This document shows, piece after piece, positions 14,074 to 26,333 of a DNA stretch of 64,000 nt; within the stretch, counting starts at the first letter, position 1, and each line of letters opens with the position of its first letter. The DNA lies in the NCBI GenBank assembly GCA_037431425.1, contig GCA_037431425.1_4129.1. The stretch is one strand, 5' to 3'. A model generated the notes under the pieces. That model was not told where the DNA came from and did not search any database. It was given only the letters and a program-made list of their open reading frames with translations. The stretch is from a phage. The translations under genes and the position numbers were made by a program.

Positions 14074-14763
14074 ATGAAGCGTAGACATATTAGTGTTGAT
14101 ATTGAGTCTCTTGGCACTCCTGAAAATTCAGGATATGATATTATTATTCCAAATTACGCAGCAGTTGTTGTTCCAAATAAACCTGAAAATGATATCAGGA
14201 ATTTTATATATGTTAAGTTGCCATACCAAGCACAAGTTAACGCTGGCCTGAAATCAGATTCAGGTGCAATGGATTTCTGGATGAATACTTGTCAGAAAGA
14301 ATATCCTAATGCATATGCAGAAGTTGCCAGTACTATGACTCTTCGTGCACCAGAATTGTACGGACCTAATGGTAAATCCAAACAAATCTTTACATCTAAT
14401 AGTATTGTCGATTTCTGGAAAGATATCCGTTATGATATCTATGGTAAAGAAGTTGAACATTCAATTTGGGGAAATGGTTGCAATTTCGACTGTAGTATTT
14501 TACAAGCTAATCACTTAAAACTATTGAATGTTGGTGATTTGTGGAAATATGATGCACCAGAAAATGCACGAACATTAAAACGTTTATTGAATGAAGATGC
14601 TCGTGCTGAAATGGATGAGATTGTGTCAGTGCAGTTAGCTAAATTCGTGAAGTATGCAGAACAATGTGGTATTAATGGTTTGGAATTACATCACCCTCTG
14701 TATGATGCAGCACGTGAAGCTATCCAAATCTCCTACTGTCTCAATAAACTTAAACTGGACTAA
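14074..14763 (+). CDS. dexA: DEDDh 3'-5' exonuclease (T4 DexA-like)
   Basis: 229 aa; Exo I motif VDIESLG, Exo II-like WGNGCNFDCSIL, Exo III H-x4-D (HHPLYDA); same order as recalled T4 DexA (227 aa). Confidence 0.75.
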   Translation: MKRRHISVDIESLGTPENSGYDIIIPNYAAVVVPNKPENDIRNFIYVKLPYQAQVNAGLKSDSGAMDFWMNTCQKEYPNAYAEVASTMTLRAPELYGPNGKSKQIFTSNSIVDFWKDIRYDIYGKEVEHSIWGNGCNFDCSILQANHLKLLNVGDLWKYDAPENARTLKRLLNEDARAEMDEIVSVQLAKFVKYAEQCGINGLELHHPLYDAAREAIQISYCLNKLKLD

Positions 14764-14766
14764 TAC

Positions 14767-15861
14767 ATGAATTTTATTATTCTGTTGATTCCTTCACTTA
14801 TCGTTGTATTTGTTATGAAATACATGTATGATAAGCATATCAGTACTAAAGAACTGTTGATTCATATTGGTTGTTGTATAGTTGGGGCTGCTCTTGTGCT
14901 TGGTATCTCATATGCAATCAACTACAGCCAATTGTACGATGTAGAGATTCTAAATGGGCAGGTAACATCCAAATATAATCACAAGGAGTTTTGTACACAA
15001 TCAAGCTCATGTAAGCATTACACGTGGCACGAGAAATGCAGAACTCGTTATGATAGTAAGGGGAAATCCCATCGTGAATGTGAGTCCTATAAGGTATTTG
15101 ATTATTCATACGAAGTTGACTGGTATGTAAAAAGTACTGTAGGGAAGTTTGAGATTGAGCGAGTAAACCGTCAGGGTACAATGACCCCTCCACGCTGGCA
15201 ACAGGTTAACATTGGGGATTATGTTGCCGCAGAAAGTTCTTATATTAACTATCTGTTCGCTGATAAAAACTCATTGTTTAGTCCTGATGAATTACATGAA
15301 ATGTATGATGAGAAATATCTTAGTTCTTTACCAGAATATCCAAGTATTAATGATTATTACATAACACATCATGTTATTAACAAAACAAATTATAATGTAT
15401 ATGGATATGAAGAATATTTACGTAACGTTTTGAAAACTATGGGTTCACGTAAAGAAGTCAATATCTTAGTTATTGTATACAATTATAAAGATAGTGATTT
15501 TGTTGATGCTACCTTAGCAAAGTGGCGTGGTGGTAAGAAGAATGATGTTATTATGTTCTTTGGTATTGATGGTGATGGTAATATTATTAAATTTAACAGT
15601 ACATCATTTGCCCAGGGAATGAAAAATGAAGGATTACATGCAAAGATGCGTATGGACGCATTAAATGAAAAATTAACGATTGACTTACTAGCAATAGAAG
15701 TGCATAATATTGATACACAGTTCGTGAGACTCTCTAATAAAGAGTTTGAGTACTTGTCTATTAAAATGGAACCACGAAAAGATGTTCTCATCGGTGCTTC
15801 TATTTTATTACTAATTATTTCTATTTTTATTGGCCTTTATATGAGGGATAACGAATTATGA
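14767..15861 (+). CDS. membrane protein (N- and C-terminal TM helices, Cys-rich central domain)
   Basis: 364 aa; hydrophobic segments at both ends; translationally coupled to downstream LemA-like gene. Confidence 0.6.
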   Translation: MNFIILLIPSLIVVFVMKYMYDKHISTKELLIHIGCCIVGAALVLGISYAINYSQLYDVEILNGQVTSKYNHKEFCTQSSSCKHYTWHEKCRTRYDSKGKSHRECESYKVFDYSYEVDWYVKSTVGKFEIERVNRQGTMTPPRWQQVNIGDYVAAESSYINYLFADKNSLFSPDELHEMYDEKYLSSLPEYPSINDYYITHHVINKTNYNVYGYEEYLRNVLKTMGSRKEVNILVIVYNYKDSDFVDATLAKWRGGKKNDVIMFFGIDGDGNIIKFNSTSFAQGMKNEGLHAKMRMDALNEKLTIDLLAIEVHNIDTQFVRLSNKEFEYLSIKMEPRKDVLIGASILLLIISIFIGLYMRDNEL

Positions 15862-16412
15862 ATGGTAAAGTTTTTGCATTAATTGGTGTTATTGTTGTAT
15901 TTGGTCTTATGGTAATTGGTTCCATTAGCATGTATGTAGGAACATATGATCGTGCGGTGGAATTTGAAGGTAATATTCAAAAGTATTATGATGCTTCAGA
16001 AAGTCAATTAAGTACTTATACCCTTACAATCCAAGAAAAGGTTCAAGTATCAGATAAGTATAAAGATGCATTGAAAGAAACAATTGAATCGTATTTCAAA
16101 GGACGTGAAGGTGTTGACCAGAAATTTGTAATGTCACAGATTCAACAGCAGGTTCCAAATCTTGATCCTAAAATTTACCAGGAGCTTATGGTAACAATTG
16201 AATCAGGACGTACAAAGTTCAACAATCTTCAAAAAATGAAAATCGACCAATGTACCGAATATTCCAAATTCCGCAAAGGATTCTGGAATTCCAAAATTCT
16301 TGATGTTAACACGTTTCCAAGTGAAAATATTGCACATCTTTGCACGGTAGTATCAGATACCCGCACAAAGAAAGCAATGGATACTGGTATTCAAGAAGTA
16401 ATTAAACTATAA
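15858..16412 (+). CDS. LemA-like membrane protein (tentative)
   Basis: 184 aa; single N-terminal TM then architecture resembling recalled LemA family (Y-x-x-x-V after TM; C-terminal ...Y..F.....FP.EN). Confidence 0.45.
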   Translation: MNGKVFALIGVIVVFGLMVIGSISMYVGTYDRAVEFEGNIQKYYDASESQLSTYTLTIQEKVQVSDKYKDALKETIESYFKGREGVDQKFVMSQIQQQVPNLDPKIYQELMVTIESGRTKFNNLQKMKIDQCTEYSKFRKGFWNSKILDVNTFPSENIAHLCTVVSDTRTKKAMDTGIQEVIKL

Positions 16413-16421
16413 TCTAAATCT

Positions 16422-16447
16422 GGGAGTACAAAATGTACTCCCATTTT
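16422..16447 (+). terminator. intrinsic terminator
   Basis: GGGAGTACA-aaa-TGTACTCCC followed by ATTTT. Confidence 0.7.
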
Positions 16448-16461
16448 CTATAGGGTTTATT

Positions 16462-17034
16462 ATGTTTTTAAAAAATACTTATGAATTAATTAAAATGCTT
16501 CAAAATATGAATTCTGGTGGTCTATTTCCTTATCATTCCGAGGATAAAACACATCGTTTAGTTTTGAAATTGGATGAAACTGGACGTATTGCATCACTAA
16601 GAACGGTTATTCCCAATATGGAGCAAGTAATCACACAATCAACTCCGAAGTCAGGCACTGCTGTTAATACACCACAAACATATAATCCACAGATATATAC
16701 TATTAGTTCTCCACCTATTACACGAGTTGCCTGTATTGTGAATATAAAAGTATCTAAGGACTATCGTGACTTAATATCAGTTGAATGGTCAGAAATAACA
16801 TCATCATTGGGAGCAAATGGGTTTGTAGTAACAAATACAGGTCTAGTACAAAATGTGAAAGAAGGACAGCAGATCATGAGTGCATTGTATATTAGTAATG
16901 GTTGTGTTATCATCAATGGCAAGTTGTATAGAGATACTGAACCTGATGCATTCACTGAAGATTTGGTTGGTGAAAAAGAATACAGCATTCTGGAAATTAT
17001 GAATTTGAAAAAGGTATATGAAAACGGTGTTTAG
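16462..17034 (+). CDS. hypothetical protein
   Basis: 190 aa ORF. Confidence 0.5.
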   Translation: MFLKNTYELIKMLQNMNSGGLFPYHSEDKTHRLVLKLDETGRIASLRTVIPNMEQVITQSTPKSGTAVNTPQTYNPQIYTISSPPITRVACIVNIKVSKDYRDLISVEWSEITSSLGANGFVVTNTGLVQNVKEGQQIMSALYISNGCVIINGKLYRDTEPDAFTEDLVGEKEYSILEIMNLKKVYENGV

Positions 17035-17601: not shown

Positions 17602-17952
17602 ATGCTAATATATTTAAGTGTACTTGTTGTTTCGTTACTGTTATCACTGGTTATTTTAAAAATTATTGCTATTGTTCGAAGTAAGATTGATTGTTCTGAA
17701 ACTGGTTCAGTTATTGACTTGGTTCTTGATTATCCAAAGCGTTGTGGTGTTATTGTATTAATTGTTCTCCTTATGAATACATACATCGTCAGAGAACATT
17801 TATATAATATGTATGATTGTAGTGTTCGTTCATTTTCACAAGGTGTGGACACTGACTATAGTTGGTATTATAAGAAATGTCGATTTAAAAACCAACACGG
17901 TATTTGGGTTGATTTTGATAAATTACGTGGAACCCCTACTGGAGAAGAATAA
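17602..17952 (+). CDS. small membrane protein
   Basis: 116 aa; two hydrophobic helices. Confidence 0.5.
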   Translation: MLIYLSVLVVSLLLSLVILKIIAIVRSKIDCSETGSVIDLVLDYPKRCGVIVLIVLLMNTYIVREHLYNMYDCSVRSFSQGVDTDYSWYYKKCRFKNQHGIWVDFDKLRGTPTGEE

Positions 17953-17954
17953 TT

Positions 17955-18446
17955 ATGTTTGTCTTCCCTGAAGAGCCATTTAATTTCATTGATCCTACGG
18001 ATGATGGGTATAGACATATTAACATTTATAGTAAAGCCAGAACTAAGCTAGGTAGAGATCTATCTAATTTTTCGTCATATAGCTTCACACTGGAACCATA
18101 TGGGTGGTTTCCATCAGTTGAAACGTTTTACTTTTGGTTTTTAACTGGTCAAAAACACGACGACCTTAGAAAAGTATCTGGTGCAACAGCAAAGGCTGCT
18201 GCTAACAAATATATGCATGATAGAATTATAATGACTGATGATTGTATCTCTATTATTCAAGATGCAATATGTGCTAAGATAATTCAAAACCCAGAGTTAT
18301 CTGAAAGATTAAGAAAAAGCAAATTACCATTCTACCATTACTATGTTTATGGTGGGAAGGTTGTTGATGTATCTGATGAGCATGACTGGTTTGTTAAAAC
18401 ATTCGAAGATATAAGAATTGTTTTAAAGGAGAATCACAATGACTAA
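17955..18446 (+). CDS. hypothetical protein; weak NADAR/YbiA-like resemblance (tentative)
   Basis: 163 aa; LSNFSSYSF...ETFYFWFLTGQK and ...IIQNPELSERL resemble recalled NADAR pattern; unverified. Confidence 0.5.
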   Translation: MFVFPEEPFNFIDPTDDGYRHINIYSKARTKLGRDLSNFSSYSFTLEPYGWFPSVETFYFWFLTGQKHDDLRKVSGATAKAAANKYMHDRIIMTDDCISIIQDAICAKIIQNPELSERLRKSKLPFYHYYVYGGKVVDVSDEHDWFVKTFEDIRIVLKENHND

Positions 18447-21084: not shown

Positions 21085-21196
21085 ATGTACCAGAAGTGGT
21101 TAACATATCATGTTATTTTCCTCCCTTACATAATAATGATGCGTTATTAGATTTTCATTTTATTATTTCTTTTTTGTACAAAATCATATTAGTACT

Positions 21197-21219
21197 GCCC
21201 CGTATATCGGGGCATTTTA
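21197..21219 (+). terminator. intrinsic terminator
   Basis: GCCCCG-tatat-CGGGGC followed by ATTTTATT. Confidence 0.6.
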
Positions 21220-24148: not shown

Positions 24149-24400
24149 ATGAGTGAACATAGTGCGGTGCTTAAAAAGATTTTAAAGGAAATTGATGGTG
24201 AGTTTAATGTCACAGAAGAAGAATATCAGCATTGGAAGAAAGATTTCGAACAACTAACCGAGTATGATAAAGTGTTCAATATGATTGGCGTAATTAGCCA
24301 GTACTTACTTGGTGGAGGACGTGCAAGTGCTTCAATTCTGGCATCTGCAATCATCTGTACATCACGATGGTGTGATGAAAAAAGTTTGGAAGATTTCTAA
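24149..24400 (+). CDS. hypothetical protein
   Basis: ATG 24149 after GGAG RBS; track ORF from 24110 is Met-rich and probably over-extended. Confidence 0.45.
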   Translation: MSEHSAVLKKILKEIDGEFNVTEEEYQHWKKDFEQLTEYDKVFNMIGVISQYLLGGGRASASILASAIICTSRWCDEKSLEDF

Positions 24401-24452
24401 ATAAGATGCTATAATATATCAGAGTTCCTTAACAATATAAAAAGGATTTTAT

Positions 24453-26333
24453 ATGAAACCTATCCGAGTACTATCTCTTTTTAATGGGATGAGTGTAGGA
24501 TACATGGCATTAAAAGATGCTGGTATCCCTGTTGAAAAATATTATTCATCCGAAATTGACAAATTTGCTATAGCTGAATCCCAAGCTAACTTCCCCGATA
24601 TCATCCAATTGGGTGATGTAACTAGATGGAGAGAATGGGATATTGAATGGGATAAGATAGATCTACTGATGGGTGGTTTTCCATGCTTCCCAGCAGGAAC
24701 TATGATAATGACAAATAAAGGTCATAAAGATATAAAAGATATAAAAATTGGTGATATGGTTCTTACACACACTGGACAGTACCAAAAAGTATTGAGTACT
24801 GGTGTTAAAAAGGCTCCCACTCGTATTATTACAGGTCAAGGTCACCTTCCAATTGAATGTACCGATAATCATCCATTTTGGAGTAGGGAACGTCTAGCCA
24901 ATAAATGGAATAATCAACACCGAAGATATGATTCTGTGTTTTCTGAACCGCAATGGGTAAATGCTATAGATCTTACTAAACAAAGTTATATTTGTAATGT
25001 TAAAAATATTACACATAATACAGTAAGTGATAAAGATGAAAAATATTGGTATTTTGTTGGTCGTTTTATGGGTGATGGATGTGCTAGTGTATCTAATAAC
25101 AAATACAGTATTACTATTGTAGATTCATTAGATAAAGTTGATGAATTGAAAAAATGTTTTGATGATTTTGGATACAAATACACATTAGCTATTAAAGATA
25201 ATCATGTAAGATGTGATATATATAGCAAAAAGCTTTATGATGAATTAATATGTATTGGGCATAAATCACAAAACAAATGTTTACCACCTGAAATATTCAA
25301 TGAAACTATCAATAACAAAGAAGCATTTATTAAAGGATACATGGATGCAGATGGTTGTGAGGATAAACACAATAAAAAATACAAATTTACCACCACAAGT
25401 TATAAAATAGTTCTTGGTATGCAACAGTTAATCTTAGATACTTATCAACGTCATTGTACTATTAGTCAAACTGTTCCAAAAACAAAAAAATATATAAAAA
25501 ATAAGTTGGTTAATCAGCTTCCGTATTGGAATGTTCATTTTAGCTATAATAAAATTAAAAGAGATGATGTAATATATGATGAAATTTATATATGGAATCG
25601 TGGTGTAAAAAGTAATGTACCAACCGGAGAATGGAAAACCGTTTACAATATTGAAGTTGCAGTAGATAACACATATACAGCGAACAATATTGTAGTTCAT
25701 AACTGCCAAGCGTGGTCAGTTGCAGGTAAACAGGGTGGAATAAATGATCCTCGTGGTATGTTATTCCATACAATGGTTGATATTTACCAGCACATAAAAA
25801 GTCTCAATCCAGACTTGAAAGTACTGTTCGAGAATGTTAAAATGAAAGAAGATTTCAAGCAATACATTAATAGTGTTCTTGAGATGACACCAGTACTGAT
25901 AAATTCCCAGCATTATACGCCTCACTTCAGGCAGAGATATTACTGGTACAGTACTGATAAACTTTTTATACCACCTGCATTATCAAATGCACCTAAACTT
26001 CAAGATATTATTGAAGATGGTTGGTACACTGACAGAACCGCTTCGTACTGTATAGATGCTAACTATTTTAAGGGTGGGGATTGTAACCAGTACTTTAATA
26101 AATCAAGAAGACAAATTGTTTTCAAAGAACCTGATATCGATAGGGATTTCCTTCTTGAACATGGTAAGCGAAATGTGGACTATCGTCATTTAACAGTGCA
26201 AGAGTGTTGCATGTTGCAAGGAATTGATGTAAACTACTTCAAAGTTAGTAGTTCAACACAAGCATACAAAATGCTTGGGAATGGATGGACTATGCCAGTT
26301 ATATCACACTTACTACGAGATATATTCTTTTGA
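24453..26333 (+). CDS. DNA (cytosine-5)-methyltransferase precursor containing an intein
   Basis: 626 aa; motif I SLFNGMSVG; motif IV GGFP|CQAWSVAG split by 340-aa insertion; ENV motif (LFENV) in C-extein; extein about 286 aa. Confidence 0.8.
   Translation: MKPIRVLSLFNGMSVGYMALKDAGIPVEKYYSSEIDKFAIAESQANFPDIIQLGDVTRWREWDIEWDKIDLLMGGFPCFPAGTMIMTNKGHKDIKDIKIGDMVLTHTGQYQKVLSTGVKKAPTRIITGQGHLPIECTDNHPFWSRERLANKWNNQHRRYDSVFSEPQWVNAIDLTKQSYICNVKNITHNTVSDKDEKYWYFVGRFMGDGCASVSNNKYSITIVDSLDKVDELKKCFDDFGYKYTLAIKDNHVRCDIYSKKLYDELICIGHKSQNKCLPPEIFNETINNKEAFIKGYMDADGCEDKHNKKYKFTTTSYKIVLGMQQLILDTYQRHCTISQTVPKTKKYIKNKLVNQLPYWNVHFSYNKIKRDDVIYDEIYIWNRGVKSNVPTGEWKTVYNIEVAVDNTYTANNIVVHNCQAWSVAGKQGGINDPRGMLFHTMVDIYQHIKSLNPDLKVLFENVKMKEDFKQYINSVLEMTPVLINSQHYTPHFRQRYYWYSTDKLFIPPALSNAPKLQDIIEDGWYTDRTASYCIDANYFKGGDCNQYFNKSRRQIVFKEPDIDRDFLLEHGKRNVDYRHLTVQECCMLQGIDVNYFKVSSSTQAYKMLGNGWTMPVISHLLRDIFF
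24684..25703 (+). mobile_element. intein with LAGLIDADG homing-endonuclease domain
   Basis: starts CFPAGTMIMT (block A), TDNHPFW (block B TxxH), two LAGLIDADG-like motifs (FVGRFMGDGCAS, FIKGYMDADGCE), ends VVHN followed by Cys +1. Confidence 0.8.

Follow-up and report, generated by a model that had tools for sequence, protein, structure and literature searches.

A divergent NADAR-family protein related to T4 AdfN in an Asteriusvirus jumbo coliphage

The locus at 17955-18446

The window, i.e. the whole stretch of 64,000 nucleotides (64 kb) analyzed here, belongs to an Asteriusvirus (121Q/PBECO4-type) jumbo coliphage and, as judged by megablast, shares 98.4% identity with Escherichia phage ph0011 across 5 kb. 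Almost all of its ORFs, which were chosen greedily, lie on the + strand (109 of 115). The gene studied here encodes a protein of 163 aa and is tightly spaced with its neighbors: 2 nt separate the stop codon of the upstream gene from its ATG, and its own stop and the start of the downstream gene overlap by 8 nt. The features of the locus are as follows.

16421-16443, + strand: terminator-like hairpin, probable upstream boundary of the block containing the NADAR gene (consensus scan only)
17941-17944, + strand: GGAG, Shine-Dalgarno-like, 10 nt 5' of the ATG (read from the sequence)
17955-18446, + strand: NADAR-like coding sequence, ATG to TAA, 163 aa (ORF read, phrog_652, profiles, AlphaFold2 model)
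18060-18071, + strand: codons of the LSNF motif (L36-S37-N38-F39), aligned to LSNF/FSNF of 8BAU, YbiA and T4 gp30.3
18120-18122, + strand: codon of E56, predicted catalytic Glu coordinating the distal ribose, aligned to PnNADAR E43 and T4 AdfN E36
18192-18194, + strand: codon of K80, equivalent of PnNADAR K75 and E. coli C7 DarG1 K115 (profile alignment)
18336-18338, + strand: codon of H128, clade-defining residue where the last beta-hairpin begins, aligned to H123 of the gp30.3 family
21196-21214, + strand: terminator-like hairpin, probable downstream boundary of the same block (consensus scan only)

Both hairpins are strong, with stems of 10 bp and 7 bp, respectively, followed by T-runs, and the first of them sits between the ORFs 15858-16412 and 16462-17034. 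Together they flank about 4.7 kb with about 12 small + strand genes of unknown function, the NADAR gene included. A promoter scan returned 57 matches against 45.7 ± 7.5 expected; since this number is not above chance, we do not claim a promoter for the gene.

The gene directly 5' of the NADAR gene (17602-17952, + strand) carries the label "WWE domain-containing protein" in ph0011 and in UniRef. Its product of 116 aa consists of two predicted transmembrane helices and a soluble tail of ~45 aa, the latter with two invariant cysteines and a YSW...G.W motif. The protein had no Pfam match at E ≤ 1, and a profile of 14 homologs retrieved no WWE structure from the PDB at E ≤ 10. A WWE domain is a fold of ~80 residues. 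In view of this lack of Pfam and PDB profile support for a protein made of two transmembrane helices and a ~45-aa tail, we rejected the label and, together with it, a two-gene ADP-ribose module of WWE and NADAR proteins. Homologs of the gene adjoin the NADAR gene in RaK2 (47%) and lie near it in XaC1 (28%), and the two genes occur together only in the syntenic RaK2-like lineage.

The 163-aa protein adopts a NADAR fold

The original prediction had tentatively proposed a NADAR/YbiA-like domain because three segments of the protein resembled signatures of this family. All three are indeed present in the ORF, namely LSNFSSYSF (residues 36-44), VETFYFWFLTGQK (55-67) and IIQNPELSERLRKS (109-122), and their resemblance to NADAR signatures goes beyond chance. 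In profile alignments, the first segment aligns with the NADAR LSNF motif, VETFYFWFLTGQK with the catalytic S-x-E helix of the solved NADARs, and IIQNPELSERLRKS with the helix that matches "KFEQHAELRALLL" of YbiA.

Searches with the single 163-aa sequence returned nothing from Pfam at E ≤ 10 (the NADAR model PF08719 included), no match from NCBIfam, and no meaningful match from the PDB using phmmer. Profiles were therefore needed. Weak matches to PF08719 were found in five of 27 homologs, the best at 0.024. The protein itself matches phrog_652 (4e-43) and phrog_11222 (2e-32), both of which are listed as "unknown function", and T4 gp30.3 matches phrog_652 as well (9e-51) in the same region of the profile. 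A family alignment of 26-27 homologs (A1) was used for a PDB profile search, for an AlphaFold2 model and for an hhalign comparison with gp30.3. Among 177,635 distinct PDB sequences, the A1 profile retrieved only two at E ≤ 10, 8BAU (7e-5) and 2B3W (3e-4), which are the NADAR of P. nicotianae and YbiA of E. coli, i.e. both NADARs. The alignments to both span the LSNF motif, the S-x-E helix and the subsequent helices.

Structure prediction likewise bore out the original prediction. The AlphaFold2 model (pLDDT 90.6, pTM 0.83) contains strands at residues 21-23, 44-46/50-52 and 129-132/135-138, helices at 55-63, 69-73, 76-84, 95-110 and 113-121, and a C-terminal helix at 144-161. In a Foldseek search of the PDB, the three solved NADARs (2B3W, 8BAU and 8BAT) took ranks 1-3 with a probability of 1.00 and TM-scores of 0.55-0.62, with modest E-values of 3e-3 to 3e-2, while TM-scores were below 0.2 from rank 4 onward. 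Beyond the members of the family itself, the named matches in BFVD are "NADAR domain-containing protein" entries of giant viruses and phages. In addition, a profile of 174 family sequences aligned with YbiA in hhalign at 93.8% (E 1.7e-7), which is about equal to the 95.3% obtained for the gp30.3 family against YbiA.

Taken together, the homolog profile, Foldseek, phrog_652 and hhalign all speak for a NADAR/YbiA-like domain; the Pfam NADAR model has no match at E ≤ 10. A significant NADAR profile match is thus missing in the narrow setting of Pfam and a single sequence, whereas all more sensitive tests were specific and positive. The missing PF08719 match reflects the sensitivity of the model and not the fold. 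We conclude that the protein is almost certainly a divergent member of the NADAR family that is related to T4 AdfN.

A sister subfamily of T4 gp30.3/AdfN

T4 gp30.3 has been renamed AdfN and is a DNA ADP-ribosylglycohydrolase that removes the guanine ADP-ribosylation written by DarT1 (PMC11825919). Comparison of A1 with a 42-sequence gp30.3 alignment by hhalign gave 97.3% (E 2.2e-11) over 142 columns, i.e. essentially the full length. Both proteins are stand-alone (163 aa versus 152 aa in T4), belong to phrog_652, and have in common the LSNF motif, the catalytic Glu, a His at the clade-defining position of the last beta-hairpin and a conserved helix at the C-terminus that contains an invariant Arg; both occur in large E. 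coli myoviruses. However, they are only ~20% identical, and the equivalent of T4 K43 is absent from the protein described here. Its subfamily is further set apart by the N-terminal motif D-G-x-x-H-I-N-I-Y-S-K-x-x-T-x-L-G-R, by an aromatic E-G-Y-W-Y-W helix and by an invariant Lys at position 80, which is Gln in T4 gp30.3/AdfN. The Pfam model of the T4 family, PF08010 (Phage_30_3), did not match the protein and matched its relatives weakly, below the cut-off of 36 bits (best match 0.01 among 27 and 4.4e-6 among 84 relatives). Because phrog_652 is common to both proteins but PF08010 is not reached, we place the protein in a sister subfamily of gp30.3 and not in PF08010 itself.

With DarG1/BC4488-type proteins (E. 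coli C7; G. lovleyi 8BAT), the protein shares the fold (TM-score 0.58 to 8BAT), the catalytic Glu and K80 as the equivalent of K115. It differs from them in having His for Asp at the clade-defining position and no Lys seven residues after the catalytic Glu (Glu+7 Lys), and in being encoded by a virus without an adjacent DarT1 toxin gene and not by a chromosomal toxin-antitoxin module. YbiA (2B3W; PF08719) has the same fold (TM-score 0.62), I-N-x-Y-S N-terminal strand, SNF motif, S-x-E Glu and helix topology. Unlike YbiA, the phage protein has His in place of E125 and a beta-hairpin insertion in place of the D-x-x-W-G-x-G motif, lacks the Glu+7 Lys and stays below the Pfam PF08719 threshold.

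The catalytic pair is conserved, whereas phosphate-contacting residues are lost

Residue conservation was counted across 174 family members. E56 is kept in every one of them, H128 and K80 in 172 each, and N38 of the LSNF motif in 171. The hhalign comparison with gp30.3 pairs E56 with E36, H128 with H123 and R154 with R149, and the PDB profile alignment identifies PnNADAR E43 as a further equivalent of E56. H128 is assigned to the clade-defining catalytic position on the basis of a chain of alignments: it pairs with H123, which is invariant in the gp30.3 family; T4 H123 aligns ungapped with YbiA E125; and the latter aligns with PnNADAR E125 in RLYE-ASRHD-AIW. At this position, YbiA has Glu, DarG1/BC4488 proteins have Asp and phage gp30.3 NADARs have His. 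In the model, H128 immediately precedes the strand 129-132.

In the PnNADAR-ADPr structure, the distal ribose is held by E43 and E125 and the pyrophosphate by K50, R79, W89, R93 and W133 (PMC11543638). The Glu+7 Lys (PnNADAR K50, DarG1 K95, T4 K43) binds phosphate/adenine, is essential in DarG1 and has been described as "largely conserved over the superfamily" (PMC11543638). In the 163-aa protein, this position (residue 63) is Leu, and across the 174 members it is Leu in 45, Ser in 40, Gly in 39 and Lys in 13. A second departure concerns the clade to which the window protein belongs, which has A83-N84 where the family has Gly (163/174) followed by Arg or Lys (128/174), at the position of the G78-R79 pyrophosphate contact of PnNADAR. 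With the Glu+7 Lys and the G-R motif of the clade lost, ADP-ribose may be bound in another way, or the substrate may be another one. The N-terminal signature of the subfamily (D17-G18-x-x-H21-I-N23-I-Y25-S26-K27...T30...G33-R34) contains two basic residues, K27 and R34, and we infer that either of them may compensate for the missing Glu+7 Lys. As for K80, its equivalent in DarG1, K115 (PnNADAR K75), is dispensable for catalysis in vitro, although the antitoxin needs it to function in vivo (PMC11543638).

Purifying selection on the gene is strong (dN/dS 0.03-0.05). The ratio was 0.028 in comparison with phage Turkey3, with 64.5 synonymous and 18.5 nonsynonymous differences and saturated dS, and 0.05 in comparison with ph0011.

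The absence of two pyrophosphate-binding residues (the K50 equivalent family-wide and the R79 equivalent in the window clade) could be taken to mean that the NADAR fold is weakened or inactive here and works by binding, either sequestering ADP-ribose derivatives or shielding DNA. We consider this lesser alternative very unlikely, since a pair such as E56/H128 that hardly varies among 174 divergent members, combined with strong purifying selection, is typical of an active enzyme. Furthermore, AdfN-T4 carrying K43A retained partial function (PMC11825919). We therefore favor an active enzyme.

A predicted role in the removal of guanine ADP-ribosylation

What such an enzyme might do is suggested by the experimental work on its relatives. 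T4 AdfN allows T-even phages to escape DarTG1; its E36A and K43A mutants are impaired, its full activity required other T-even factors, and activity or DarTG1 rescue is known only for the AdfN proteins of T4, Bas32 and Bas60 (PMC11825919). G-ADPr on DNA and RNA is hydrolyzed by all NADAR clades tested. DarTG1 also occurs in E. coli, the host species of the window phage (E. coli C7).

By analogy, we propose that the protein acts as a stand-alone ADP-ribosyl N-glycohydrolase of the phage "His-type" lineage. [quoted passage not shown] The likeliest substrate would be N2-ADP-ribosyl-guanine on phage DNA, possibly also on RNA, as written by host ADP-ribosyltransferases of the DarT1 or pierisin type. 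Removal of the adduct would then enable phage replication in hosts with DarTG1-like abortive-infection systems. Building on the fold, the family relationship, the catalytic pair and the purifying selection found here, we hold with moderate confidence that the protein is a guanine-ADP-ribose hydrolase that counters DarT1-type defence. Substrate and role are proposed with caution because two pyrophosphate-binding residues are missing. Given that AdfN-T4 required other T-even factors, activity of the window protein in vivo may depend on its context. The original prediction had also guessed that a phage copy could counter an ADP-ribosylating toxin defence, which agrees with the experimental role of the sister family against DarTG1.

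The family is widespread among phages and fused to ADP-ribose-processing domains

Syntenic orthologs of the same length are present in RaK2 (71%), GAP32 (47%), CBB (46%) and Xanthomonas phage XaC1 (40%). By tblastn, the family was found in 553 phage records. It is mostly viral, and when clustered at 50% identity, the members retrieved by an exhaustive HMM search form at least 2,082 clusters. A 31%-identical version occurs in 283 Ackermannviridae-type records, none of them annotated. This subfamily member is conserved across Agtrevirus/Limestonevirus/Kuttervirus-like phages, e.g. at 24228-24716 of LHE287, and is called "hypothetical" everywhere; a MazG-like pyrophosphatase often adjoins or overlaps the match. 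We considered the LHE287 homolog as a link to AdfN of Bas32 and Bas60 and rejected it, as the phage is a member of the Ackermannviridae (149 kb) and not phi92-like, and the homolog has no Pfam NADAR match.

About half of the best 150 family representatives are multidomain proteins (n = 84) of up to 1,415 aa. Among these 84, the fusion partners are DUF4326 (23), SLOG domains (about 28; YAcAr 18, DprA-like 9, and also YpsA), Macro (6), DUF488-N3a (6), a Rv2179c-like exoribonuclease (2) and a canonical NADAR (1). The same partners have been described by the Aravind lab for viral NADARs in the processing of ADP-ribose derivatives (PMC9503650, PMC7824862). The fusions to Macro, SLOG, DUF4326 and DUF488-N3a domains place the family in ADP-ribose processing. 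In a pattern-limited scan of the genomes of 185,579 species, only 11 loci were found, all of them prophage-like in appearance, with genes for Macro, DUF488-N3a, YAcAr, AAA_28 and NADAR proteins among their neighbors. No ART toxin was present near these loci among the 25 of 62 neighbor families listed.

This genomic context bears on the main rival to a DNA-directed enzyme, namely an active NADAR that acts on soluble, low-molecular-weight ADP-ribose derivatives and not on ADP-ribosylated DNA. Candidate substrates are host immune signals or toxins (cyclic ADPR isomers, ADPr-1''-phosphate) and by-products of NAD-dependent RNA repair. Such substrates have been proposed by the Aravind lab for most phage NADAR, Macro and SLOG proteins (PMC7824862, PMC9503650), and specifically for the 92%-identical protein QAY00367.1 (PMC7824862). 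The frequent fusions to SLOG, Macro and DUF4326 (a predicted ribose-phosphate phosphatase) are in line with this proposal, as are the Macro, DUF488-N3a, YAcAr and AAA_28 neighbors of the cellular loci, with no ART among the families listed. An altered binding mode would likewise fit the loss of the canonical Lys and, in the window clade, of the Arg. However, all NADARs assayed, including the phage His-type T4 gp30.3, act on base-linked G-ADPr in nucleic acids, and we found no published NADAR activity on a soluble immune signal. Moreover, K80 is invariant, and the equivalent K115 of DarG1 is implicated in the handling of the DNA substrate in vivo. On balance, we regard a soluble substrate as rather unlikely. 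It appears unlikely, too, that the subfamily has a substrate specificity unlike that of any characterized NADAR; if it does, the target may be a soluble immune signal derived from ADP-ribose or a base-ADPr bond that does not involve guanine-N2, and the protein would then represent a new enzymatic counter-defence activity and not another AdfN. Hydrolysis of guanine-ADP-ribose on nucleic acids is the reading that we continue to prefer.

The protein might also regulate or clean up the NAD/ADP-ribose chemistry of the phage itself, for instance by reversing modifications that a NAD-utilizing phage enzyme (an ART or SIR2 protein) has made on macromolecules of the host or the phage, and would then not act against a host defence. 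T4-like phages express NADAR genes early and together with ARTs (PMC9503650), and in T4, adfN (30.3) lies about 3 kb from alt, which encodes the virion ADP-ribosyltransferase, on the same strand. In addition, the Asteriusvirus genome that encodes QAY00367.1 also encodes the SIR2-domain protein QAY00582.1, about 215 genes away (PMC7824862). A family search of 87 window ORFs found no ART, Macro, Nudix, SLOG or SIR2 gene within the 64 kb, so there is no ART neighbor and no linkage to an ART or SIR2 gene of the kind seen in T4, and the nearest relative has been validated as a counter-defence protein. This lesser alternative is thus improbable, and we retain counter-defence against DarT1-type toxins as the preferred role.

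What is known and what is new

The NADAR assignment is correct but already known. Iyer et al. 2021 (Viruses 13:63, PMC7824862) name QAY00367.1 as an example of a jumbo phage NADAR domain; this protein is an ortholog with 92% identity over all 163 aa and falls into the same 90% cluster. A second ortholog with 92% identity, XMR01337.1, is encoded syntenically in phage Turkey3, where it is annotated as "NADAR domain-containing protein" (GenBank PQ471515). Neither differs substantively from the window protein, which, like nearly all other orthologs, is still labelled "hypothetical protein". More generally, over 48% of medium and jumbo phages have been reported to encode NADAR domains (PMC9503650). 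Because the fold has already been published for a 92%-identical protein, the finding itself is ordinary. Only two points are mildly new: the Glu+7 Lys has been lost throughout the subfamily, and a family of this size is missed by standard profile libraries.

The main value of the result lies in annotation. The gene is present in hundreds of phage genomes, including those of Asteriusvirus, RaK2-like jumbo phages and Ackermannviridae, and nearly all of them list it as "hypothetical protein"; it can nevertheless be placed confidently in the phage NADAR lineage, in which the T4 protein has been validated as an anti-DarTG1 factor. If the subfamily is active on ADP-ribosylated DNA, DarTG1 resistance should be widespread in large coliphages that are therapeutic candidates and in Salmonella/Klebsiella phages. 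Lacking the canonical Lys, the protein is also a useful natural variant for studies of ADP-ribose binding by NADARs.

Other genes in the window

Two further genes of the window are worth mentioning. A protein with a Rv2179c-like 3'-5' exoribonuclease domain is encoded at 14074-14763 (+ strand), ~3 kb 5' of the NADAR gene, and its counterpart in Turkey3 is annotated as Pol III epsilon. A Rv2179c-like domain is also the one fused to the NADAR-like domain in two of the 84 multidomain relatives, which could be coincidence. A C5 cytosine DNA methyltransferase of 626 aa is encoded at 24453-26333 (+ strand) and is split after about residue 77 by an intein with Hint, intein-splicing and LAGLIDADG homing-endonuclease domains. 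The Turkey3 ortholog has no intein and is encoded by 861 bp (about 286 aa), and the presence of the intein therefore varies within Asteriusvirus.
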